Source of the DNA: Moraxellaceae bacterium
Lineage (GTDB): Bacteria; Pseudomonadota; Gammaproteobacteria; Pseudomonadales; Moraxellaceae
Direction of reading: 5' to 3'
NCBI GenBank assembly: GCA_029237815.1
Contig: JAQZBP010000002.1
Location: 206,917-270,916 of the forward strand
Length of the DNA: 64,000 nucleotides
In this document: positions 1,419-35,726 of the stretch, piece after piece
Position numbering within the stretch: position 1 is the stretch's first letter
How the letters are laid out: every line of letters begins with the position of its first letter
The notes under the pieces: generated by a model
Databases searched by the model: none
Seen by the model: the letters and a program-made list of their open reading frames with translations, nothing else
Told to the model about the DNA's origin: nothing
Made by a program: the position numbers and the translations under genes

Positions 1419-2453
1419 TCATTCAGTTTTCGATTCGCGAGTTGCAGGAGCTTCAGCACAACCGAAGCGACGCTCGATCAGCGCCGGCACATTTTTCTCG
1501 ACCTCAAGTACAGCCACACGTAGCGCCTGGGCAAATGCATCGGCATCCGCTCCGCCATGGCTCTTGACGACGATTCCAGTCAGCCCCACGAGGCTGGCGC
1601 CGTTATAACGACCCGGATCCATGCGATGGCGCAGTCCCTGCCAGACCGGGTATGCCAGCGCCCCAGTCAAGCGAGTCAGCCAGTTTCGACCGATTTCTTC
1701 CTTGATCATGCCTGCCAGCATCTTGGCGACGCCTTCCGACGCCTTCAGTGCGACATTCCCCACGAAGCCGTCACAGACCACCACGTCGGCCTGCCCCTTG
1801 AACACGCCGTCGCCCTCCACATAACCGATGTAATTCAGGCCAGACTGTCTCAACAGTTCGTCCGCCCGCTTGATCAGCTCATTACCCTTGATTTCTTCCT
1901 CACCGATATTGAGCAGGCCCACTCGCGGATGCTCGATACCGTCAAGCGCCTCCGCCACGACTGAGCCCATCTGGGCAAACTGGAGCAAGTGCTCCGGCTG
2001 GGAGTCGACGTTAGCGCCGAGATCCAGCATGTGAACATGGCCTTTAGTCGTAGGCAAAGCAGTGAGGATGGCAGGACGATCGATATTCGCATGGGTCTTC
2101 AGCACAAAGCGGCTGATCGCCATGAGGGCGCCGGTATTACCAGCCGAAACACAGGCTTGAACCGCCCCCTCTTGCACAAGGTTGATGGCGAGGCGCATCG
2201 ACGACTGCCTCTTTTGACGCAACGCGACAGCCACCTTGTCATCCATCGCAACGACTTCAGAGGTGTGGAGCACGGTTGTGCGCAAGCGCTCAGAAGGCGC
2301 GAGTCTAGACAGGAAGGGAGCTATTATTGATTCGTCGCCGACGAGCGTCAGGCGGAGGGAGGGATTTTCACGCAGCACCGCTAGTGTAGCGGGAACCGTG
2401 ACGCGGGGACCGAAGTCCCCGCCCATGGCATCGACGGCAATCGCGATGCTCAT
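1419..2453 (-). CDS. plsX: phosphate acyltransferase PlsX
   Basis: 344-aa ORF starting MSIAIAVDAMGGDFGP, the typical PlsX N-terminus. Directly downstream of rpmF. Confidence 0.9.
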   Translation of the reverse strand: MSIAIAVDAMGGDFGPRVTVPATLAVLRENPSLRLTLVGDESIIAPFLSRLAPSERLRTTVLHTSEVVAMDDKVAVALRQKRQSSMRLAINLVQEGAVQACVSAGNTGALMAISRFVLKTHANIDRPAILTALPTTKGHVHMLDLGANVDSQPEHLLQFAQMGSVVAEALDGIEHPRVGLLNIGEEEIKGNELIKRADELLRQSGLNYIGYVEGDGVFKGQADVVVCDGFVGNVALKASEGVAKMLAGMIKEEIGRNWLTRLTGALAYPVWQGLRHRMDPGRYNGASLVGLTGIVVKSHGGADADAFAQALRVAVLEVEKNVPALIERRFGCAEAPATRESKTE

Positions 2454-2464
2454 TGGATGACGGC

Positions 2465-2647
2465 TTATTCTTCGTCTTTGCTCGCGAACAGCTGGCGGCC
2501 ACGATACAGGCCATCCTTGGTCACGTGGTGACGAAGATGCACTTCACCGGACTCCTGATCCACCGACAGGGTGGGACCGGTCAGCGCATCGTGCGCGCGG
2601 CGCATGTCGCGGCGGGAACGGCTCTTGCGGTTTTGTTGAACGGCCAT
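2465..2647 (-). CDS. rpmF: 50S ribosomal protein L32
   Basis: 60-aa [25 protein letters not shown], the L32 signature. Conserved yceD-rpmF-plsX order. Confidence 0.9.
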
Positions 2648-2675
2648 GGTTTACTCCGGCACAAATATTGTTGGT

Positions 2676-3204
2676 TTACTCTTTCTCGGTGCGGCCCTTG
2701 AGCGAGGCCAGCACCTCAAACGGATTTTCGCGCTTGGGCGCTTCCACTTCAGCATCCTCGGACTCTGCCACCGGATACACCACACAATTCTCATGCATGG
2801 GAGCCAGCGGTAGCGCCAGAATCAGCTCATCCTCGAGAGCGTCGGCCAAGTCAATTCGGCCGTCTTCATCGAGAACCAGAAAATCAGCGTCGTCCGGCAG
2901 TCGATCCGCTCGCGCTTCATCGCGTAGGAGCCAGAGCTGAACGTCCGCCTTGATGTCAGTAGCGGCAGGCTCAAGGCATCGCTGGCAGATCAGGTTTATG
3001 GTGGTGGCCATATGCCCGTCCACTACAAACAATCCTTGCGCGTCACGATGCAACTGAACCTTTACCGCTACTTCGCCTCTATCATCGGCCGCCCCTTCCG
3101 TAAGACGAGCGAAGGCGGAAAGCGGAAAGACCTGTTCGATCGTCGCTTCACGGTCCGCCCATTTCTGGACATCGATGTACTGAGGCAGGGTGCCGGCTGA
3201 CATA
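2676..3204 (-). CDS. yceD: YceD/DUF177 protein, large ribosomal subunit accumulation
   Basis: ORF in frame with the listed 2676..3347 ORF. Start chosen at the internal ATG (3202-3204, MSAGTLPQYIDVQKW..) to give the typical ~175 aa. Contains the CQRC..C motif and an acidic C-terminus, upstream of rpmF. Confidence 0.75.
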
Positions 3205-3291
3205 GGCGCGCGATAATACGAGCAGACAGAAGGCGTGTCAAAAGGAAAACCCTTGTTTTTAATACACTCTTGAAAGGAGGCACTCACGCCC

Positions 3292-3882
3292 ATGCCCACC
3301 CACGCGCCGAACCTTCTTCTGGCCTCATCCTCCCCCGCCAGACGCATGCTGCTGGAAAGGCTAGGCCTGCCCTTCCGGTGTCAAAGTCCTGATGTCGATG
3401 AAACGCCATTGCCCGAGGAGTCCGCCGTGGACCTGGTCAGGCGACTGAGCGAAGCCAAGGCTCGCGCCCTGCAAGCAGCCTTTCCCGACTGCCTGATCAT
3501 TGGTTCGGACCAGGCCTTGCAACTGGACGGGGGCATTCTGGGAAAGCCCGGCAGGCACGATGCTGCAATGACTCAGCTGAAGCGCCTATCAGGGCGCACC
3601 GCCACCTTCCACACCGGACTTTGCCTTCTCAACGTCCAGGCCAACAGACTTCACCTGCTAACCGAGCCCTTCACGGTCCACTTCCGCGACCTCGATAAAG
3701 CCACCATAGAGCGCTACCTGGCGGCAGAAGAACCCTACGGCTGCGCCGGCAGCTTTAAAGCAGAGGGACTGGGAATTAGCCTTTTCAGGAGGTTTGAGGG
3801 AAGGGACCCAAGCAGTCTGATAGGGCTGCCGCTCATGGCCCTTGTTGACATGCTCCACGCAGAGGGAATCTCCGTTCCCTGA
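3292..3882 (+). CDS. maf: Maf-like nucleoside triphosphate pyrophosphatase (YceF type)
   Basis: 196-aa ORF with LLLASSSPARRMLLERLGLPF and GSDQAL..DG motifs of the Maf family. Divergent from yceD as in enterics and pseudomonads. Confidence 0.85.
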   Translation: MPTHAPNLLLASSSPARRMLLERLGLPFRCQSPDVDETPLPEESAVDLVRRLSEAKARALQAAFPDCLIIGSDQALQLDGGILGKPGRHDAAMTQLKRLSGRTATFHTGLCLLNVQANRLHLLTEPFTVHFRDLDKATIERYLAAEEPYGCAGSFKAEGLGISLFRRFEGRDPSSLIGLPLMALVDMLHAEGISVP

Positions 3883-29083: not shown

Positions 29084-30682
29084 TCACAGAGCGGTGACGG
29101 CGCCCCAGTCCAGGCCGAAGCGCGCCAGGTACTTGCGCAGGCGGTCAGTATCGTTGGGCGTGCTGCGCCTCTCTCGGCTGCGCGCAAACAGGCGGCGTCC
29201 GGCCTCGGCCAGGCTCCCGCATTCGCGACAAACTTCCACCACATGCTCGAGCTGGACACGATCGAAGTCGTCAAGCGTTGCCAGCAGCGCCACCGGCAAG
29301 ACGGCGCTAGTTCCCTCTCCCGTCGTCGCCTCGCCCGAAGGCCGCTCCCAGGCCATGCGCAGACGCTGGATCTCGCGTTCCACCGTGGCGGTGGTGATGC
29401 GCCCACTGGCGGCCAGCGCCGCCATTCGCCGCACCGACGCATAAAGATCTCGAAAGTTGCCGTGCCAGGGTGCGGCCGCCGACAACGCAAAGCCCAGGTA
29501 ATGCGCCTTCGCCTCCCGGTTGAAGCGCACCAGCCGCCCCTCGCGCTCGGCGAAACGCTCCAGCTCGTAGTCGACGTTGGGCTCGATATCCTCCCGCCGA
29601 CGCGCGAGCCCGGGCAGATGGAAGGTCCAGACATTGAGGCGGGCAAACAAATCCTCGCGAAAGCGGCCCCGCGCCACGTCCACACGCAGGTCGCGGTTGG
29701 TGCCGGCGATGAGCTGGAACTCCGAACGCACGTCACGATCAGCGCCCATCGGCAGGAAGGTCTTTTCCTCCAGCGCCTTGAGCAGCATGGCCTGCTCGTC
29801 GAGGCCGAGCTCGCCGATCTCGTCGAGGAAGAGTTGGCCGCCGTCGGCACGCTTGAGCAGGCCCTCGCGCGCGCTGGCTGCACCGGTGAAAGCTCCCTTC
29901 GCATGACCGAATAGCGTGCTCATGGCGGTATCCCCACGCAGCGTGGCGCAGTTCACTTCAACGAAGTCGCCACGGAACTGGTGACGCTGGCGCTTCAGCT
30001 CGTAAAGACGCCGCGCCAGATGCGATTTGCCGGCGCCAGTGGGGCCGATCAGCAGCAGCGGTTCGCGCGAGCCGATGGCCACCTGTTCCATCTCGTCGAT
30101 CATGGCGTTGAAGGCGGCGTTACGCGTGGCGATGCCTGCCTTAAGATGACTGACCGCGTCCTCTTTCTCGCGCGCAAAGCGCTCGGCCAAGCGATCATAG
30201 CGGGAGAGGTCGAGGTCGATGACGGTGCAGCTGCCCCCCGGCCCCTCTCCGTCACGTGGCGGCGAAGTCTGCAGTATGCGCGCGGGCAGGTAACGGCTCT
30301 CGGTCAGCAGGAACCAACAGATCTGCGCCACATGCGTGCCGGTGGTGAGGTGAACCAGGTAGTCCTCCTCTTGCGTGCGGAAGGGATAGGCGCGCACGAA
30401 GTCGTGCAGCTTGGCGTAGACCTCCTCGAAGTCCCAGGGATCGCGGAAGTACATGTCGTGAACCACCAGCTCGATCGTGGGCGCGATTTCGGCGATATCC
30501 GCCTGCACCTGGGCCAGCAAGCGCGAGCTGCGGCGACGGTCGCAGAGCAGCTCGATGCGGTCGACGCCGAGCGCGGCCTGATGGGCGATGCCGACCGTGG
30601 GCCGCCAGTGCTTCTTGCGCTCCTCACCCTTGCCGCGGGCGTCGAGCTGGGTGCCGAGGAAGCCAATGACGACAGTTTTCAT
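29084..30682 (-). CDS. rtcR: sigma54-dependent transcriptional activator RtcR (CARF-AAA+-HTH)
   Basis: N-terminal 180 aa align closely with the E. coli RtcR CARF domain (VIGFLGT..WRPT..DRIELL..HDMYFRDPWDFEEVYAKLHDF..EEDYLVHLTTGTHVAQICWFLL..RYLPARILQTSPP). It is followed by the AAA+ sigma54-interaction domain (GPTGAGKS, GAFTGA) and a C-terminal HTH. Confidence 0.9.
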   Translation of the reverse strand: MKTVVIGFLGTQLDARGKGEERKKHWRPTVGIAHQAALGVDRIELLCDRRRSSRLLAQVQADIAEIAPTIELVVHDMYFRDPWDFEEVYAKLHDFVRAYPFRTQEEDYLVHLTTGTHVAQICWFLLTESRYLPARILQTSPPRDGEGPGGSCTVIDLDLSRYDRLAERFAREKEDAVSHLKAGIATRNAAFNAMIDEMEQVAIGSREPLLLIGPTGAGKSHLARRLYELKRQRHQFRGDFVEVNCATLRGDTAMSTLFGHAKGAFTGAASAREGLLKRADGGQLFLDEIGELGLDEQAMLLKALEEKTFLPMGADRDVRSEFQLIAGTNRDLRVDVARGRFREDLFARLNVWTFHLPGLARRREDIEPNVDYELERFAEREGRLVRFNREAKAHYLGFALSAAAPWHGNFRDLYASVRRMAALAASGRITTATVEREIQRLRMAWERPSGEATTGEGTSAVLPVALLATLDDFDRVQLEHVVEVCRECGSLAEAGRRLFARSRERRSTPNDTDRLRKYLARFGLDWGAVTAL

Positions 30683-30830: not shown

Positions 30831-30846
30831 TGGCACGCCCCTCGCT
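30831..30846 (+). promoter_or_regulatory. sigma54 (-24/-12) promoter of the tRNA-mimic/SPFH/rtcB operon
   Basis: TGGCACGccccTcGCT against the consensus TGGCACGnnnnTTGCW, with correct GG-N10-GC spacing. Divergent from rtcR. Confidence 0.6.
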
Positions 30847-30984
30847 ATATCCCCCTCGCCACACCGCACGGCTCCTGAGACAGGCGTCCCACGCCGTGGC
30901 GCACTGCCCTGTCCCCCGGTAGGTCCGGACATGGGGCGGGTGCGTACCGGGCCGGGTGGAACGGCAATGCCCTGTTAAGGCATC

Positions 30985-31054
30985 GGGTTTGTAGCTCAGG
31001 GGTAGAGCAGCGGCTTCGGCCGTGGACGCGGGTTCGAGTCCCGCCAGACCACCA
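30985..31054 (+). ncRNA. tRNA-like RNA 1: cloverleaf whose anticodon arm is replaced by a cUUCGg tetraloop hairpin; encoded 3' CCA
   Basis: Acceptor GGTTTG/CAGACC (6 bp), U8A9, D-arm GCTC-AGGGGTA-GAGC, hairpin GCGGC-TTCG-GCCGT, variable GGAC, T-arm GCGGG-TTCGAGT-CCCGC, then ACCA. Confidence 0.6.
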
Positions 31055-31126
31055 CTGTTGTAGCTCAGTCGGGTAGAGCACCGATCTAAACCGTCGGCTG
31101 TCGCGGGTTCGATTCCCGCCAACACC
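31055..31126 (+). ncRNA. tRNA-like RNA 2: pseudo-tRNA with a 7-nt anticodon loop CUAAACC (anticodon AAA, C37), imperfect acceptor stem, no encoded CCA
   Basis: Acceptor TGTTG/CAACA (5 bp plus a C:C mismatch), D-arm GCTC-AGTCGGGTA-GAGC, anticodon stem CCGAT/GTCGG, variable CTGTC, T-arm GCGGG-TTCGATT-CCCGC. It starts 1 nt after RNA 1. Confidence 0.55.
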
Positions 31127-31394
31127 GCGTTAACCACGCGATCTGAAAAACCGAGAAGGCGATGCCGTGTCGCCGGTCCGGGACGAGGTGGAGGCCAAGC
31201 CAGAATGGCTGGCCAATGCCCCGCCCCGGGCCACCCGGCCAGAGGCCGGCCGACACGTCGCCGCGGGACCGGCGCACCGGAGGCGATTGCTCCGGTCGCC
31301 CGCCCCGCGGCCACCCGAGGCCCCCGCTGTCCGGGGGCGGCACGGCAAAGCCCGATCACTTGATGACAATGAAGAACAGCAAGGAAGAAAGAAG

Positions 31395-32606
31395 ATGAAC
31401 ACGAAGACCAACACCCGAATGAATTCCCTGGACCCGCGTTGCAAGACCGTCCTCGGCGCTTGGAAGACCTGGCGCGTCGAGGCCGACGAGCGCGGCCTGC
31501 TGTACCGCTACGACACCCCCGTCGCCGTGCTGCGCGCCGGCGAGCACCGCTTCTTCGATCCGCTCGGCAAGCTGCGCGCGGAAGTCTCGACGCTGAGCCA
31601 GCCGCTGTTCCGCTCCGCCCAGGAAGACTGGCTGCGCGCGGAACGCCGCGAATGGCTGGAGACCGAGTGGCAGGCGGTGGAGACCGGCGCCGATGAGCTG
31701 GCCTGGGTGCGCTACAACGGCAAGCTTGCCGACGTGCTGCCGCCCCGGACCCGCGCGCTGTACTGGCGCGGCTTCGTGGAGGTGAGCGTGGAGCGCGTGG
31801 ATCTTTCAGCGACGCTCGAGGTGGCCCCGGCGCTGCTGCGCGAGCTCGCCAACACGAGCTTCGTGGGCGCGCACGCCTCACCGGCCCAGGTCGTGATGCA
31901 GGTGGAAGTGCCGTCTTATGCGGTGGGCGTACTGACCGTCGACGACGGCGAAGCGCGCCTGCTGACACCGGGCCGCTACGGGTTCTACCGCACCGGTCGC
32001 AACATCGGCTTCCAGACTGCGGACACGCGCGAGCAGGCGCTGGAAATCAGCGGCCAGGAAATCCTGACCGCGGACAAGGTGGCGCTGCGCGTGACCGTGG
32101 GCGTGAGCTGGAAGGTGGCGGACGTGCTGGCCTGCCAGCGCGAACTGGCCAAGCCGGGCGAGCACCTGTACCGCGAGGTGCAGTTCGCGCTGCGCCAGGT
32201 GGTGGGTACGCGCTCGCTGGACACGCTGCTGGAAGACAAGACCGCGCTGGACCGCGAGGTGCTGGAGCTGGTGAAGCCCCGGCTGGAGGGCCAGGGCCTG
32301 GCCGTTGTGCGGGTGGGGGTGAAGGACATCATCCTGCCCGGCGACATGAAGGCCATCCTGACCCGGGTGGTGGAGGCCGAGAAGGCCGCTCTGGCGAACG
32401 TGATCCGTCGCCGTGAGGAAACCTCTGCGACCCGCTCGCTGCTGAACACCGCCAAGGTCATGGAGGACAACCCGGTGGCGCTGCGCCTGAAGGAGCTGGA
32501 AACGCTGGAACGCATCACCGACAAGATCGGCAACATCTCGGTCTACGGTGGCCTGGAAGGCGTGCTGCAGGATTTGGTGAAACTGGCACCGGCGAGCAAG
32601 CAATGA
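31395..32606 (+). CDS. SPFH/band-7 (stomatin/prohibitin-like) domain protein with a novel ~180-aa N-terminal domain, no TM segment
   Basis: C-terminal half has the SPFH core (..VRVGVKDIILPGDMKAILTRVVEAEKAALANVIRRREETSATRSLLNTAKVMEDNPVALRLKELETLERI..). Start at the ATG at 31395 preceded by AAGGAAGAAAGAAG. The upstream in-frame stretch of the 479-aa listed ORF is low complexity. Confidence 0.8.
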   Translation: MNTKTNTRMNSLDPRCKTVLGAWKTWRVEADERGLLYRYDTPVAVLRAGEHRFFDPLGKLRAEVSTLSQPLFRSAQEDWLRAERREWLETEWQAVETGADELAWVRYNGKLADVLPPRTRALYWRGFVEVSVERVDLSATLEVAPALLRELANTSFVGAHASPAQVVMQVEVPSYAVGVLTVDDGEARLLTPGRYGFYRTGRNIGFQTADTREQALEISGQEILTADKVALRVTVGVSWKVADVLACQRELAKPGEHLYREVQFALRQVVGTRSLDTLLEDKTALDREVLELVKPRLEGQGLAVVRVGVKDIILPGDMKAILTRVVEAEKAALANVIRRREETSATRSLLNTAKVMEDNPVALRLKELETLERITDKIGNISVYGGLEGVLQDLVKLAPASKQ

Positions 32607-32685
32607 CCCGTGCCGGGCGGCAGGACGCCGCCCGGTGCGGAACTCCCTCGGCAAGATGAGAGGAATGACCAAGCACAGGCTTTTG

Positions 32686-32900
32686 CAGGGCTGAGCGCGA
32701 AATGGCGAGCGGCCGGCAAAAGTGTTTACGTAGCCGGTGAAGGGTAAAACCGACGGCATTGGCGGCAGCCGGTAATTTGAGGATGCAGCCCCGGGGTCCG
32801 AGCAAGGTTCCGAGGGTGTCGCGCGTTTAAAGGACTGCCGCACGCGGGAGTAATGCCCCGTGGCTGCCTATTGCGGGTTCGAGTCCCGCCAGCCCTGCCA
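32686..32900 (+). ncRNA. roughly 215-nt structured RNA with an 8-bp terminal stem, a T-arm identical to tRNA-like RNA 1, and a 3' CCA (Y-RNA-like)
   Basis: 5' CAGGGCTG pairs with 3' CAGCCCTG-CCA. The T-arm GCGGG-TTCGAGT-CCCGC precedes the 3' strand. An inner stem GCGCGA/TCGCGC and several GC-rich hairpins lie between. The RNA sits in the 358-bp gap between the SPFH gene and rtcB. Confidence 0.45.
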
Positions 32901-32964: not shown

Positions 32965-34191
32965 ATGGACCATACGCATGAAATCTGGCAGCCGGCGCCG
33001 CAAAGCCGGCCCATCAAGATGTGGACCTCGGGCGTGCCCGTGGAAGCCGAGGCCCGCGCCCAGCTTGCCAACATCGCGCAGCTGCCCTTCGTATTCCGGC
33101 ACGTGGCGGTGATGCCCGACGTGCACCTGGGCAAGGGCGCGACCGTAGGCTCGGTGATCCCCACCAAGGGCGCCATCATCCCTGCCGCCGTGGGGGTGGA
33201 CATCGGCTGCGGGATGATCGCCGCGCTCACCTCGCTCACGGCCAAGGACCTGCCGGACAACCTGCAGGGCCTGCGCGCCGCCATCGAGCGCGCCGTGCCG
33301 CATGGCCGCAGCGTGGGCCGCGGCAAGCGCGACGAAGGAAGCTGGAGCAATCCGCCCGCCGAGGCGCTGGCGGCCTGGTCGACCCTGGCCGACGGCTTCA
33401 GGGCCATCACGGAAAAGCATCCGCGCCTGAAGAACACCAACAACGTGCAGCACCTGGGAACGCTGGGGACCGGCAACCACTTCATCGAGATCTGCCTGGA
33501 CGAGGCCGACCGCGTCTGGTTCATGCTGCATTCGGGGTCGCGCGGGGTGGGCAATGCCATCGGGACCCACTTCATCGAGCTGGCCAAGGCGGACATGCGC
33601 CGCCACTTCATCAACCTGCCCGACCAGGACCTCGCCTACCTGCCGGAAGGGACTCAGCACTTCGAGGACTACTGGCAGGCGGTGGACTGGGCGCAGCGCT
33701 TCGCCATGAAGAACCGCGAGGTGATGATGGGAGCAGTGGTACGCGCCGTCGGCGCCGCGCTCGGGAAGCCGTTCTCGGCAACGCAGGAGGGGGTGAACTG
33801 CCACCACAACTACGTGTCGCGCGAGCGCCACTTCGGCGAGGACGTGCTGGTGACACGCAAGGGCGCGGTGAGCGCGAAGGAAGGCGAGCTCGGGATCATT
33901 CCGGGATCCATGGGCGCCCGCTCCTACATCGTGCGCGGCAAGGGCAACCCGGAGTCGTTCTGCTCCTGCAGCCACGGCGCGGGGCGCGTCATGAGCCGCA
34001 CCAAGGCCAAGGCGCAGTTCACGCTGGAGGACCACCGCCGCATGACCGCGCACGTGGAATGCCGCAAGGACGCGGCGGTGATCGACGAGACCCCGGCGGC
34101 CTACAAGGACATCGAGGCCGTGATCGCCGCCCAGGCCGATCTGGTCGAGGTGGTGCATACCTTGCGGCAGGTGGTGTGCGTGAAAGGCTGA
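32965..34191 (+). CDS. rtcB: RNA-splicing ligase RtcB (3'-phosphate/5'-hydroxy nucleic acid ligase)
   Basis: 408-aa ORF with KMWTSGVPVEAEA, MPDVHLGKG, GTGNHF, NCHHNY and CSHGAGR, all hallmark RtcB motifs. Confidence 0.95.
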   Translation: MDHTHEIWQPAPQSRPIKMWTSGVPVEAEARAQLANIAQLPFVFRHVAVMPDVHLGKGATVGSVIPTKGAIIPAAVGVDIGCGMIAALTSLTAKDLPDNLQGLRAAIERAVPHGRSVGRGKRDEGSWSNPPAEALAAWSTLADGFRAITEKHPRLKNTNNVQHLGTLGTGNHFIEICLDEADRVWFMLHSGSRGVGNAIGTHFIELAKADMRRHFINLPDQDLAYLPEGTQHFEDYWQAVDWAQRFAMKNREVMMGAVVRAVGAALGKPFSATQEGVNCHHNYVSRERHFGEDVLVTRKGAVSAKEGELGIIPGSMGARSYIVRGKGNPESFCSCSHGAGRVMSRTKAKAQFTLEDHRRMTAHVECRKDAAVIDETPAAYKDIEAVIAAQADLVEVVHTLRQVVCVKG

Positions 34192-34395
34192 TGCCTGTGA
34201 GGAAGAGCCAGGGCCATGAATCGGTCCGGCAGTCGGTGTCGACGCCGGACTGATGCCCACCGCACCGCAAGGACGAGTGCTTGCCGGAGGTCAAGCGGCG
34301 GGCAAATCGCCCCTTTTCCGCTCCCCTCCCGCCCCCGCCTTCCGGTATCATCCTCCCGCCTTTTTCCCTACCCCCGTCCAACACGAGGTTCCGCC

Positions 34396-35497
34396 GTGGA
34401 CATCCGCCTGTCTGAACGTGTACTGAGCATCAAGCCCTCCCCCACGCTGGCCGTCACCAACAAGGCCGCCGAGCTGAAAGCCGCGGGCAAGGACATCATC
34501 GGCCTCGGCGCCGGCTGACGGCACCGCGGGCCTCAAGAAGGCCATCATCGCCAAGTTCAAGCGCGACCAGAATCTCGACTACGCGGCCAACCAGATCCTG
34601 GTGAGCTGCGGCGGCAAGCAGAGCTTCTTCAATCTCGCCCTGGCGCTGCTGAACAAGGGCGACGAGGTCATCATCCCGGCGCCCTACTGGGTGTCCTACC
34701 CGGACATGACCCTGATCGCCGACGGCGTGCCGGTCTGCATCGAGTGCCCGCAGTCCCAGGGCTACAAGATCACCGCCGCCCAGCTGGAAGCCGCGATCAC
34801 CCCGAAGACCCGCCTGCTGGTGCTGAACAGCCCGTCCAACCCCACCGGCATGGTTTATTCCAGCTCCGAGCTGCTGGCCCTGGCCGAGGTCCTGCGCAAG
34901 CACCCGCACGTGCTGGTGGCCACCGACGACATGTACGAGCACATCATCTGGACCACGGAGAAGTTCGAGAACATCGTCACCGTGGCGCCGGACCTGTATG
35001 ACCGCACCATCGTGCTGAACGGCGTCTCCAAGGCCTATGCCATGACCGGCTGGCGCATCGGCTATGCCGCCGGCCCGGTGAAGCTGATCAACGCCATGAA
35101 GAACGTGCAGTCGCAGTCCACCTCCAACCCGACCTCCATCTCCCAGGTGGCGGCCGAGGCGGCCCTGAACGGCCCGCAGGATGTGCTGGCGCCCATGGTC
35201 AAGGCCTTCAAGGAGCGCCATGACTTCGTGGTGGGCAAGCTGAACGAGATCGAGGGCGTGTCCTGCTCGGCGGCCGATGGTGCTTTCTATGCCTTCGCCA
35301 ATGTCGAAGGGGCGATCAAGAAGTTGGGCCTGAAGGACGACCTGGAGTTCTCCGAACTGCTGCTCAATACCGTCGGTGTGGCCGTGGTGCCGGGCTCCGC
35401 CTTCGGCCTTGGCGGCCATATGCGCATCTCCTATGCCACCTCGCCCAAGGTGCTGGAAGATGCGCTCAACCGCATCAGGAAGGCCATCGAGGGCTGA
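34396..35497 (+). pseudogene. aspC: aspartate aminotransferase (class Ib AspAT) disrupted by an internal out-of-frame deletion
   Basis: N-terminal frame VDIRLSERVLSIKPSPTLAVTNKAAELKAAGKDIIGLGAG ends at the TGA at 34516. The downstream frame continues DGTAGLKKAIIAKFKRDQNLDYAANQILVSCGGKQ through to the C-terminus. About 28 conserved residues (EPDFDTPEH..KY) are missing at the junction. Confidence 0.65.
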
Positions 35498-35643
35498 TCG
35501 GAAGCGGCGAAAAAAACGCCAGCCAAGCCGTTGAAAAGCCAGACAAAGCCGCCGAAATGGCGGCTTTGTTTTTTAGTTCAGAAAAGCCTGCGTCAGCGCT
35601 TGACCGACTTAGGTTCAATCCCTATTATTCGCGGCCTCTGCCA

Positions 35644-35719
35644 TTCCCCGATAGCTCAGTTGGTAGAGCGCAGGACTGTTAATCCTTAGGTCGCTGGTTC
35701 GAGCCCAGCTCGGGGAGCC
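35644..35719 (+). tRNA. tRNA-Asn (GTT)
   Basis: TCCCCGA-TA-GCTC-AGTTGGTA-GAGC-G-CAGGA-CTGTTAA-TCCTT-AGGTC-GCTGG-TTCGAGC-CCAGC-TCGGGGA-G-CCA. Canonical cloverleaf with encoded CCA. Confidence 0.95.
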
Positions 35720-35726
35720 AAATCAG

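Follow-up and report, generated by a model that had tools for sequence, protein, structure and literature searches.

The window analysed here, a 64,000-nt stretch of a Moraxellaceae contig, contains an RtcB repair locus. The rtcR gene (29084–30682, minus strand) encodes a sigma54-dependent activator with an RtcR/CARF N-terminal domain (Pfam RtcR, E=2.8e-77; Sigma54_activat, E=2.8e-48) and is transcribed divergently from an operon of tRNA-like RNAs, a Band-7 gene and rtcB, all on the plus strand. A pattern match places a sigma54-type -24/-12 promoter motif, TGGCACgcccctcGCT (TGGCAC-N5-TCGCT), at 30831–30846. The motif is 75–94% identical in relatives, against only 39–61% for the spacer upstream of it, and the same motif occurs 130–215 nt 5' of the first tRNA-like element in essentially all RtcR-type loci. 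These sequence patterns suggest that it acts as an RtcR/sigma54 promoter. A conserved structured 5' leader (30853–30984) follows, with 68–96% identity to three related loci (L085, L083 and L086) and compensatory changes in 18 of the 38 pairs in an RNAalifold consensus of six sequences. It terminates in a hairpin resembling an anticodon stem-loop (AUGCC-CUGUUAA-GGCAU, 30967–30983), the loop triplet of which differs among close orthologues (GUU, GAU, GUC).

Two tRNA-like elements come next: element 1 (30985–31054), about 140 nt beyond the promoter motif, and, abutting it, element 2 (31054–31128). A G+C-rich spacer (31129–31394; 91% identity to L085, 57% to L083 and 47% to L086) separates them from the gene of a 403-aa Band-7/SPFH ('slipin') protein (31395–32606; Pfam Band_7, E=2e-21), the sole protein gene between rtcR and rtcB; the operon has no rsr gene. 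An unannotated, tmRNA-like RNA of about 214 nt (32687–32900), recognized by its fold and its homologues, lies just upstream of rtcB (32965–34191; Pfam RtcB, E=8.5e-134), which encodes the RNA 3'-phosphate/2',3'-cyclic-phosphate ligase. The promoter/terminator scan found no promoter-like or terminator-like site on the plus strand of the spacer, and no sigma70-like promoter or terminator on that strand between the sigma54 motif and rtcB. It is well supported that the leader, both tRNA-like elements, the Band-7 gene, the tmRNA-like RNA and rtcB form one transcription unit from the RtcR/sigma54 promoter.

The initial annotation described element 1 as a cloverleaf with a tetraloop hairpin in place of the anticodon arm, and every part it named is present. 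The 6-bp acceptor pairs GGUUUG (30986–30991) with CAGACC (31045–31050) and leaves G30985 opposite A31051. U8 and A9 (30992–30993) lead into the D arm (GCUC/AGGGGUA/GAGC, 30994–31008); the anticodon stem, GCGGC (31010–31014) with GCCGU (31019–31023), is capped by UUCG (31015–31018). The 4-nt variable region GGAC precedes the T arm (GCGGG/UUCGAGU/CCCGC, 31028–31044), and A31051 is followed by CCA (31052–31054), so that ACCA is encoded. The C(UUCG)G loop appears in both the sequence and the minimum-free-energy fold. ARAGORN labels the element 'tRNA-???' with a 2-nt 'anticodon'. The covariance-model search proposed in the initial annotation, run with the Rfam tRNA model RF00005, calls it at 48.2 bits (gathering score 29; E=3e-7 over the whole window), with 2 nt standing for five anticodon-loop positions of the model.

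Free-energy minimization returns precisely the cloverleaf, at -28.1 kcal/mol and with 59% of the ensemble. Folding energy does not distinguish either element from shuffled sequences of the same G+C content (z=-0.5 for element 1, z=-0.18 for element 2), and we make no use of thermodynamic stability as support; the more-than-chance case for element 1 therefore rests on covariance-model scores and comparative data. Element 1 retains the nucleotides that shape the L-fold (U8, A14, G18 and G19, the Levitt pair 15-48, T54 Psi55 C56 and A58), and these are near-invariant across the family alignment.

A loop of four nucleotides leaves no anticodon: the 7-nt loop, U33, the 3-nt anticodon and the purine at position 37 are all missing, which rules out a genuine decoding tRNA. 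Reading of the sequence found neither G3:U70 nor a long variable arm nor G-1, and we know of no anticodon-independent synthetase identity set that matches element 1. Sequence and established tRNA identity rules thus support the view, already put forward in the initial annotation, that element 1 is a tRNA mimic predicted to be unable to decode. The acceptor also departs from the standard 7 bp. With 6 bp and a G1.A72 mismatch, CCA comes one nucleotide early relative to the 7-bp register, and handling of element 1 by RNase P or the CCA enzyme is therefore an assumption.

Element 2, of the canonical Band-7-associated type, combines a 5-bp acceptor with a 7-nt loop (CUAAACC) and lacks CCA; ARAGORN labels it 'Phe AAA', and it scores 47.8 bits with the Rfam tRNA model. 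Its loop is hypervariable, with six of seven columns differing among five orthologues. Its T arm (31103–31119) had been proposed, along with another at 32873–32889, as a paralogue of that of element 1; both T arms are real, and the second belongs to the larger RNA upstream of rtcB. That element 1 is half of a tight tandem pair had been overlooked. In tandem loci the gap between the two elements is -2 to +6 nt in 18 of 18 cases.

Comparison with 167 related loci ties these RNAs to the Band-7 gene. Nearly every Band-7 gene has, upstream and on its own strand, a tRNA-like element whose D and T arms hardly vary (about 80 of 88 Band-7 loci), and such an element is found in all 27 Band-7 loci of an independent set chosen via another RNA. 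All 222 matches to the family model lie on the Band-7 strand. The linkage is to Band-7 and is not due to chance. Loci that carry Rsr instead of Band-7 carry YrlA instead. The family model, R1, was built from 78 Band-7-proximal elements; both elements of the window are in its seed alignment and score 62.3 bits (element 1) and 78.7 bits (element 2), the former being the lower. ARAGORN alone misses the tRNA-like element in about 15 RtcR-type loci, where it is picked up by the covariance model and by a D/T-arm regular expression.

Stem cells are paired in 96.8% of cases among the 78 relatives; shuffles reach 69% and slid controls 35–44%. Both sides of a pair have changed in 421 stem cells, against 123 in shuffles. 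Compensatory changes affect five of five acceptor pairs, five of five anticodon-stem pairs and four of five T-stem pairs; the D stem and the T loop hardly vary. The cloverleaf, for which an absence of covariation in homologous loci had been named as the refutation, is thus upheld by covariation in three of its stems.

[quoted passage not shown] To the extent that it is described there, the b7a-tRNA lies beside a Band-7/SPFH gene and rtcB in RNA-repair operons, is proposed as an RNA cofactor of Band-7 interchangeable with YrlA/Rsr, and was as of 2018 a prediction without experimental validation. Element 1 is likewise placed just 5' of a same-strand Band-7/SPFH gene in an RtcB repair locus. Element 2 is a textbook b7a-tRNA, and element 1 matches the same family model. 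The b7a-tRNA is characterized in that secondary description as 'strongly resembling an authentic tRNA', from which element 1 differs by its UUCG loop, the loss of the anticodon loop and its encoded CCA; it also differs in being an extra, upstream paralogue of a tandem pair. The anticodon-loop-less, UUCG-capped form is a variant of the predicted family. It is well supported that element 1 is a non-decoding, tRNA-shaped RNA gene of the b7a-tRNA family and the upstream, CCA-bearing half of a tandem pair.

Element 1 might alternatively be a drifting pseudogene left over from a tRNA array, its anticodon loop destroyed by a 3-nt deletion. The arrangement of some loci fits such an origin: the last CCA-bearing tRNA of an array abuts the Band-7-associated tRNA-like element (L014, L017) as element 1 abuts element 2. 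Most RtcR-type loci hold just one tRNA-like element, and element 1 is dispensable in many lineages. The orthologue in L085 has two weakened pairs in its stems (G.A and U.U), so constraint is not absolute. Against decay, UUCG varies at none of its four positions in five close orthologues, NCCA is kept in five of five, and the D and T arms are invariant. Two stems of element 1 show compensatory change: the T stem passes from GCGGG/CCCGC to GCAGG/CCUGC, and acceptor pair 6-67 appears as U-A, U.U and G.U. The whole transcribed leader is similarly conserved (91–97% in the closest relative), and high identity alone does not single out element 1.

The distribution of loop types also speaks against random loss. 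Among the 29 elements of the family with 4-nt anticodon loops, 13 have GNRA and 12 have YNCG loops; 25 of 29 thus fall into two thermostable tetraloop classes, far above the expectation for random deletion. Close relatives swap tetraloop class yet stay at 4 nt, and distant relatives retain 4–5-nt loops of other sequence (CUAG, UGUC, CUCGA). Replacement of the 7-nt anticodon loop by a UNCG or GNRA tetraloop is recurrent in the family; the initial annotation had missed that capping is not peculiar to element 1. In RtcR-type loci the loop is shortened in 31 of 42 elements, compared with 12 of 57 in other loci (Fisher p=2e-7, with kinship ignored). These sequence comparisons indicate that capping is probably a selected state and not decay, with the reservation that the enrichment in RtcR-type loci ignores shared ancestry. 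We regard the relic explanation as very improbable.

The family offers a contrast, in that an anticodon-like loop is kept beside tRNA arrays and is repeatedly replaced by UNCG or GNRA where RtcR controls the operon. What RtcR senses is tRNAs that have been cleaved in their anticodon loop. Capping in operons under such a regulator makes the anticodon end an obvious target for mutations that examine RtcR signalling, nuclease resistance and Band-7 binding.

The initial annotation likened element 1 to the tRNA-like domains of Y RNAs, and the likeness is borne out by the arms. YrlA (Rfam RF02553; Chen et al. 2014, PMC4201824) has a consensus D arm, GUAGCUCA..GGUAGAGC, and a T arm, GCGGGUUCGAnnCCCGC, that are nearly the same as those of element 1. 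The two also share RtcR/sigma54 control, a place upstream of rtcB and non-decoding tRNA mimicry, and some YrlA RNAs are substrates of RNase P and the CCA enzyme. The topology is different. YrlA is permuted, running from T arm through a closed acceptor hairpin to D arm, and has a long Ro60-binding stem and Rsr as its partner, whereas element 1 has the normal order, its 5' and 3' ends are open and the gene it accompanies is Band-7. That element 1 is an ordinary-topology Band-7-associated element, as opposed to a permuted Y RNA, had gone unremarked.

A permuted domain could in principle be assembled across the pair, from the T arm of element 1 and the D arm of element 2, and closed by a long stem. 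The Rfam YrlA model does align to 31007–31104, bridging the two elements, at 39.3 bits (E=1.4e-6 in a 2.3-kb search), but this falls below the gathering score of 69, and true YrlA RNAs score 70–77 bits in the equivalent niche of sister Rsr loci, where TROVE/vWA_Ro60 proteins are encoded (for example L162). Within the alignment the would-be acceptor hairpin amounts to just 3 bp, and most of the long closing stem does not pair. Taken separately, the two cloverleaves each reach about 48 bits under the tRNA model and 62–79 bits under the family model, and covariation backs two separate acceptor stems and two anticodon stems. With its sub-threshold score, its poor closing stem and an operon devoid of rsr, we reject the composite fold as extremely unlikely.

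A described relative is PA4581.1 of Pseudomonas aeruginosa, annotated as 'tRNA-Arg4' and located between rtcR (PA4581) and the PA4582–PA4585 rtc cluster. It has no CCA and odd identity features. Comparison with PAO1 by its published description makes it the counterpart of element 2, not of element 1; in other Pseudomonas loci the same gene is the proximal member of a tandem pair. The RNA was detected by qRT-PCR, its levels did not rise with the Rtc proteins (PMC13637947), and in a late cystic fibrosis isolate it ranked with the most strongly induced genes (PMC8743555). PA4581.1 is an expressed RNA of the Band-7-associated tRNA-like family. Because its loop still has 7 nt, it is annotated as a decoding tRNA; other members of the family are likewise listed as ordinary tRNAs or given nonsense anticodons.

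A second point of comparison is provided by the L-arrays and the trn operon of Anabaena, in which translational stress brings joint regulation of rtcB, a slipin-family gene and extra tRNA genes outside the housekeeping set (PMC8421152, PMC10272220). Many of the Band-7 loci carry arrays of 2–14 CCA-encoding tRNA genes exactly at the position of element 1. The array tRNAs keep their anticodon loops and are chargeable, whereas element 1 is a single capped, non-decoding derivative; the arrays are under the TrcR repressor and not under RtcR.

The Band-7 protein itself comprises an N-terminal beta region, an SPFH domain and a long helix, and no membrane segment is seen in its translation. Its AF2 model (pLDDT 80) matches stomatin and HflK/C in Foldseek (E~1e-14), and the predicted architecture would be the SPFH-plus-helix arrangement of ring and cage formers. 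The full-length model also aligns with the major vault protein over 404–442 columns (E to 2e-11, TM about 0.35). When the N-terminal beta domain is modelled by itself, no PDB entry matches it at E<0.01 and the major vault protein is not among its matches, so any vault likeness would be confined to the SPFH domain and helix. The structure search found no RNA-binding fold in the N-terminal domain.

We consider it somewhat more probable than otherwise that element 1, as a b7a-family RNA, is excised by tRNA-processing enzymes and acts as a non-decoding, anticodon-nuclease-proof cofactor of Band-7 and RtcB. Damaged tRNA would turn on RtcR and the precursor would be transcribed. The acceptor/T-arm stack and the D/T elbow may let RNase P and 3' tRNA-processing enzymes excise both elements, and since element 2 begins at or one nucleotide past the CCA of element 1, one RNase P cut would also make the mature 3' end of element 1. 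The freed L-shaped RNAs would stay out of translation and might bind a soluble, ring- or cage-forming Band-7 as an RNA cofactor or adaptor in RtcB-dependent repair, as has been proposed for YrlA and Rsr (Ro60) in the sister operons. The UUCG cap would delete the part of the tRNA that anticodon nucleases cut, so that the cofactor could outlive the very attack inducing the operon, and a capped element 1 would yield no cyclic-phosphate tRNA halves of the kind that activate RtcR.

In another conceivable role, the tRNA-like elements and the leader hairpin would bait tRNA-targeting toxins, for instance anticodon nucleases, or inhibit them competitively with no involvement of Band-7, the capped copy binding the nuclease uncut and the looped copies absorbing cleavage or reporting to RtcR. 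[quoted passage not shown] Variation among five near-identical orthologues is concentrated in the 7-nt loops (8 of 14 columns vary, compared with 32 of the 282 other columns; p=9e-5) and spares UUCG, as in an arms race at a nuclease target site, although such rapid loop change may equally be relaxed constraint. A sponge would also require high abundance of the RNAs. The strict pairing with Band-7 (27 of 27) and the swap for YrlA where Rsr is present argue for a cognate protein partner, and we hold the decoy role to be rather unlikely.

The elements might instead act in cis, as mere entry sites for RNase P and RNase Z ('tRNA punctuation') that trim the long leader and determine how stable the Band-7–rtcB mRNA is or how well it is translated, the excised RNAs being idle. 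Their placement fits: in every case they belong to the 5' untranslated region and the mRNA strand, 200–500 nt before Band-7. The conservation pattern fits too: the RNase P determinants (acceptor and T-arm features) are best conserved and the anticodon end varies or shrinks freely. For punctuation, however, an acceptor/T minihelix would suffice, yet the D stem, the GG of the D loop and the Levitt-pair positions are near-invariant in distant taxa, as they are in YrlA, which indicates recognition of the whole L-shape. Two tandem copies and selection for thermostable tetraloops would go unexplained, and PA4581.1 accumulates as a stable RNA. We consider a purely cis-acting module unlikely and favour the cofactor role.

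The third RNA of the operon has a 7-bp acceptor-like stem (32687–32693 with 32890–32896) stacked on the T arm at 32873–32889, a 3' end formed by G73 and CCA (32898–32900), and a large structured insert. Its core is common to 87 metagenome loci, almost always just upstream of rtcB, and every helix covaries in a 77-sequence alignment; the nhmmer score on the window is 118 bits. It is the RNA of the operon most like the tRNA-like domain of tmRNA. ARAGORN labels a few homologues tmRNA. A search against Rfam gave no match at the gathering score, the best being a sub-threshold tmRNA hit (25 bits against 47), and reading of the sequences shows that the 'tag' frame shifts between clades; we rejected tmRNA as an assignment on these grounds. 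The third RNA is a widespread RNA of about 214–235 nt with an acceptor end of the tmRNA/tRNA-Ala type, G3:U70 and A73 in the consensus, and is apparently undescribed: a literature search found no description of it or of capped b7a-tRNAs.

The tRNA-like domain of tmRNA and element 1 are both non-decoding acceptor/T-arm mimics with a CCA end. tmRNA is without true D and anticodon stems, needs SmpB, contains a tag reading frame and is alanylated via G3:U70; a full cloverleaf and the lack of G3:U70 set element 1 apart from it. Here a tmRNA-like RNA lies directly upstream of rtcB, and in E. coli tmRNA is reportedly the RNA that RtcB ligates most often (PMC9650030).

The operon invites a broader conjecture, in which its tRNA-derived RNAs (the leader's anticodon-stem-loop bait with its quickly changing triplet, the loop-bearing element 2, the uncuttable element 1 and a possibly alanylated tmRNA-like RNA) would together make up a sensor and shield against anticodon nucleases. 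Cut baits would supply cyclic-phosphate fragments to RtcR, and element 1 together with the Band-7 cage would then retain broken tRNAs or tmRNA or hand them to RtcB. Capping would have evolved specifically in RtcR operons to part the sensing from the cofactor RNAs, and the tandem, joining the T arm of one element to the D arm of the next, would be the source of the permuted YrlA fold. We rate this scheme as distinctly improbable.

Among Band-7 loci, nhmmer finds the third RNA only in the window and in L048, with L056 matching at the T-arm end only; the RNA thus does not accompany Band-7 universally. A search of E. coli genomes gave no match to it, and one match was found on a plasmid, where it is unannotated.

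The tRNA-like RNA at 30985-31054 of the forward strand (GGGUUUG UA GCUC AGGGGUA GAGC A GCGGC UUCG GCCGU GGAC GCGGG UUCGAGU CCCGC CAGACC A CCA) belongs, as a tandem variant with a tetraloop cap and a CCA end, to the Band-7-associated tRNA-like family (b7a-tRNA) predicted by Burroughs and Aravind (2016), members of which carry tRNA-gene annotations in some genomes. The initial annotation read the element as a tRNA-like RNA carrying a cUUCGg tetraloop hairpin in place of the anticodon arm; ARAGORN, the Rfam tRNA model and the minimum-free-energy fold agree, and its interpretation proves essentially right overall. The covariance-model search it proposed matches the RNA to the Rfam tRNA model with a score of 48.2 bits, where the gathering score is 29 and the window-wide E is 3e-7, with two nucleotides aligned in place of five anticodon-loop positions, and ARAGORN reports a 'tRNA-???' with a 2-nt anticodon. 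The cloverleaf is the minimum-free-energy structure, representing 59% of the ensemble, and the elbow nucleotides are complete (U8, A14, G18 G19, G15/C48 and T-loop UUCGA). The acceptor stem consists of six Watson-Crick or wobble pairs; the standard 7-bp register places G1 opposite A72 and the CCA one nucleotide early. Stability is no greater than that of shuffled sequence (z=-0.5), so in this G+C-rich DNA the folding energy is no argument, and the case for the RNA is comparative.

Relatives of the Band-7 protein encoded in the window number in the thousands. We compared 80 genome loci, collected with a Band-7 family profile, and 11 metagenome loci of close relatives, using ARAGORN, a covariance model built here from 78 Band-7-proximal elements (R1) and a regular-expression search with the D stem and the T arm as its sole requirements. 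All three find a tRNA-like element 200-500 nt 5' of the Band-7 gene in about 80 of 88 loci, the R1 matches lie without exception on the Band-7 strand (222/222), and an independent set, chosen through the third RNA of the operon (below), has a tRNA-like element in each of its 27 Band-7-bearing loci. Across the 78 aligned sequences, essentially no variation is seen in the D stem (GCUC/GAGC) or the T loop, while the acceptor, anticodon and T stems covary. Stem cells are paired in 96.8% of cases, against 69% in shuffles and 35-44% with slid partners, and 421 of them carry double changes against 123 expected, most of the aligned sequences having originally been detected by a cloverleaf-seeking program. 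The regular-expression set, for which the anticodon stem is no requirement, has an anticodon stem of at least 4 bp in 99/99 elements. Covariation across homologous loci, the absence of which the initial annotation had named as counter-evidence, is thus strong.

The loci fall into two types. In type A loci, exemplified by Pseudomonas, Burkholderia, Ralstonia, Comamonadaceae and the clade of the window itself, rtcR is divergent and accompanied by one or two tRNA-likes. Type B loci lack rtcR in the vicinity; between 2 and 14 tRNA genes of ordinary appearance, which encode their CCA, precede a single tRNA-like without CCA, and Band-7 comes next. In many Band-7 loci such tRNA-gene arrays (for example at 1908-3502 of locus L008 and 36-3601 of L050, and in L024, L017, L014, L005, L020, L034 and others) stand directly 5' of the CCA-less element, all on the Band-7 strand. 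The literature yielded no description of an array combined with Band-7 and a terminal tRNA-like in proteobacteria; the link between a tRNA array and rtcB is already published for cyanobacteria (PMC8421152), and in Anabaena translational stress induces a slipin gene together with a tRNA array and rtcB (PMC8421152, PMC10272220). Type B element loops mostly resemble Ile, Met and Thr anticodon loops (CUGAUAA, CUCAUAA, CUCGUAA). The anticodon region is shortened in 31/42 elements of type A loci against 12/57 of other loci (Fisher p=2e-7, uncorrected for shared ancestry). Among the 29 four-nucleotide loops, usually set atop a 6-bp stem, 13 are GNRA and 12 YNCG, and the tetraloop class switches among close relatives while the loop stays four nucleotides long (GAAA, GCAA and GCGA in Burkholderia, UUCG in Ralstonia). 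The UUCG cap in the window is thus one case of a loop replacement that recurs and is apparently selected.

Closer comparison is afforded by five orthologues (the window and loci L085, L177, L178 and L179), which share about 86% column-by-column identity from the promoter to the second tRNA-like RNA. In all five the CGGC-UUCG-GCCG hairpin is retained, as is an NCCA end leading directly into the second RNA. L177 has a compensatory T stem (GCAGG/CCUGC), and acceptor pair 6-67 is U-A, U.U or G.U. More distant relatives have short loops of other sequence (CUAG in L083, UGUC in L087, CUCGA in L086), and the acceptor of L086 and L087 is a regular 7-bp stem followed by ACCA. The two cloverleaves are separated by -2 to +6 nt in 18/18 tandem loci. 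Variation among the five orthologues is focused on two 7-nt loops, that of the second tRNA-like RNA and that of the leader hairpin, which hold 8 varying columns of 14; elsewhere 32 of 282 columns vary (p=9e-5). The 5' leader (30853-30984, forward strand), between the sigma54-type motif and the first tRNA-like RNA, is conserved on par with the tRNA-likes; its fold is conserved too, with compensatory pairs. Its terminal hairpin (30967-30983; AUGCC-CUGUUAA-GGCAU) is an anticodon-arm look-alike whose 'anticodon' triplet is GUU, GAU or GUC among near-identical orthologues; the hairpin persists in L083, with a compensatory change in its stem, and in L086 the loop becomes GAAA. The leader of L081, a Band-7 locus with UvrB upstream and a sigma54 motif and with no rtcR or rtcB nearby, contains an isolated extra T-arm-like hairpin followed by ..GACCA, 5' of its tRNA-like (3385-3579).

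Two tRNA-likes abut here, the capped RNA standing first. The second one (31054-31128, forward strand; Rfam tRNA 47.8 bits) lacks CCA and has an acceptor of 5 bp and the 7-nt loop CUAAACC. On the upstream side, rtcR occupies the opposite strand (29084-30682; Pfam RtcR and Sigma54_activat) and a conserved sigma54-type motif, TGGCAC-N5-TCGCT, is identified by pattern match (30831-30846); downstream on the forward strand follow a Band-7/SPFH gene (31395-32606) and rtcB (32965-34191). The rtcR, Band-7 and rtcB proteins have consecutive accessions on record. A promoter and terminator scan of the forward strand among these elements through rtcB found no sigma70-like promoter or intrinsic terminator. 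The first RNA would be co-transcribed with Band-7 and rtcB, and both tRNA-likes would be excised by RNase P and 3' processing, a single cut at the second also freeing the CCA end of the first. The released RNA may be a trans-acting, tRNA-shaped partner of a Band-7 oligomer in RtcB-dependent repair. RtcR activators are tRNA halves that terminate in a 2',3'-cyclic phosphate, and YrlA, the bacterial Y RNA, is uncut by the inducing nuclease and was suggested to be a competitive inhibitor (PMC7790460). Owing to its UUCG cap, the capped RNA could be immune to cleavage by anticodon nucleases and incapable of yielding RtcR ligands. Rival readings would make it a free decoy or sponge, a cis processing module, a decaying relic or a composite Y RNA. 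A passage of a preprint describes b7a-tRNA as functionally interchangeable with YrlA/Rsr, unvalidated at the time of writing (bioRxiv 10.1101/312249, citing Burroughs and Aravind 2016). The Pseudomonas aeruginosa PA4581.1, located between rtcR and PA4582-85 and annotated as tRNA-Arg4, is without CCA and shows unusual identity features (PMC13637947, PMC8743555); it is detectable by qRT-PCR (PMC13637947) and strongly up in a late clinical isolate (PMC8743555).

No membrane helix was seen in the Band-7 protein of the window. Its structure model has two beta subdomains, an SPFH domain and a long helix, and matches stomatin, HflK/C and prohibitin cages. In Foldseek, the full-length model aligns with the major vault protein across 404-442 columns, with TM low at about 0.35, and the N-terminal domain alone has no significant structural match; a vault-like reading of the model is therefore unproven. 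Four nucleotides past the Band-7 stop codon lies a G+C hairpin of 12-13 bp (32610-32638, forward strand; GUGCCGGGCGGC-AGGA-CGCCGCCCGGUGC), which surfaced as a weak PtaRNA1 match. Having no U tract, it is not a classical terminator, and its role may lie in processing or in stability, between Band-7 and the RNA that follows.

This third RNA, unannotated and about 214 nt long (32687-32900, forward strand), occupies the Band-7-rtcB spacer. The T arm noted initially at 32873-32889 is real: it is stacked on the 7-bp acceptor stem that closes the RNA, which ends in G-CCA (N73-CCA) and carries a covarying insert of ~170 nt. The core is common to 87 metagenome loci, a further set chosen through this RNA, almost always directly 5' of rtcB, and occurs in both kinds of operon, after Band-7 or after Rsr (Ro60) and YrlA. 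Every helix covaries in a 77-sequence alignment. The consensus acceptor, GGGCGCG/CGCGUCC, has G3.U70 in 67/77 sequences and is followed by A73-CCA, G3.U70 and A73 being the identity set of tRNA-Ala and tmRNA; the window copy, unlike the consensus, has G3-C70 and G73. It belongs to no family in Rfam 15, where the top match is a sub-threshold tmRNA, no conserved tag frame was seen, and the searchable literature yielded no description. The window operon holds four structured RNAs, one apparently undescribed. In E. coli, the RtcB ligation target reported most often is tmRNA (PMC9650030). Two Rsr-type rtc operons (L162, 10163-10420; L168, 1536-1802) have two YrlA-like RNAs between rsr and the tmRNA-like RNA, making three structured RNAs before rtcB; both score above the Rfam gathering score in L168, and one above and one below (31.5 bits) in L162. 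The ~450-480-nt Band-7-rtcB spacers of the Pseudomonas loci L015, L016, L026, L027 and L045 have no T arm and no third RNA by nhmmer, and may hold a different element. No rtcA is recognisable 3' of rtcB (34192-35720), where two open reading frames (34216-34518, forward; 34496-35419, reverse) have no Pfam match. A genuine tRNA-Asn(GUU) gene lies at 35645-35720 (69 bits), and a tRNA-Asn is also located downstream of the Band-7 locus of L086.
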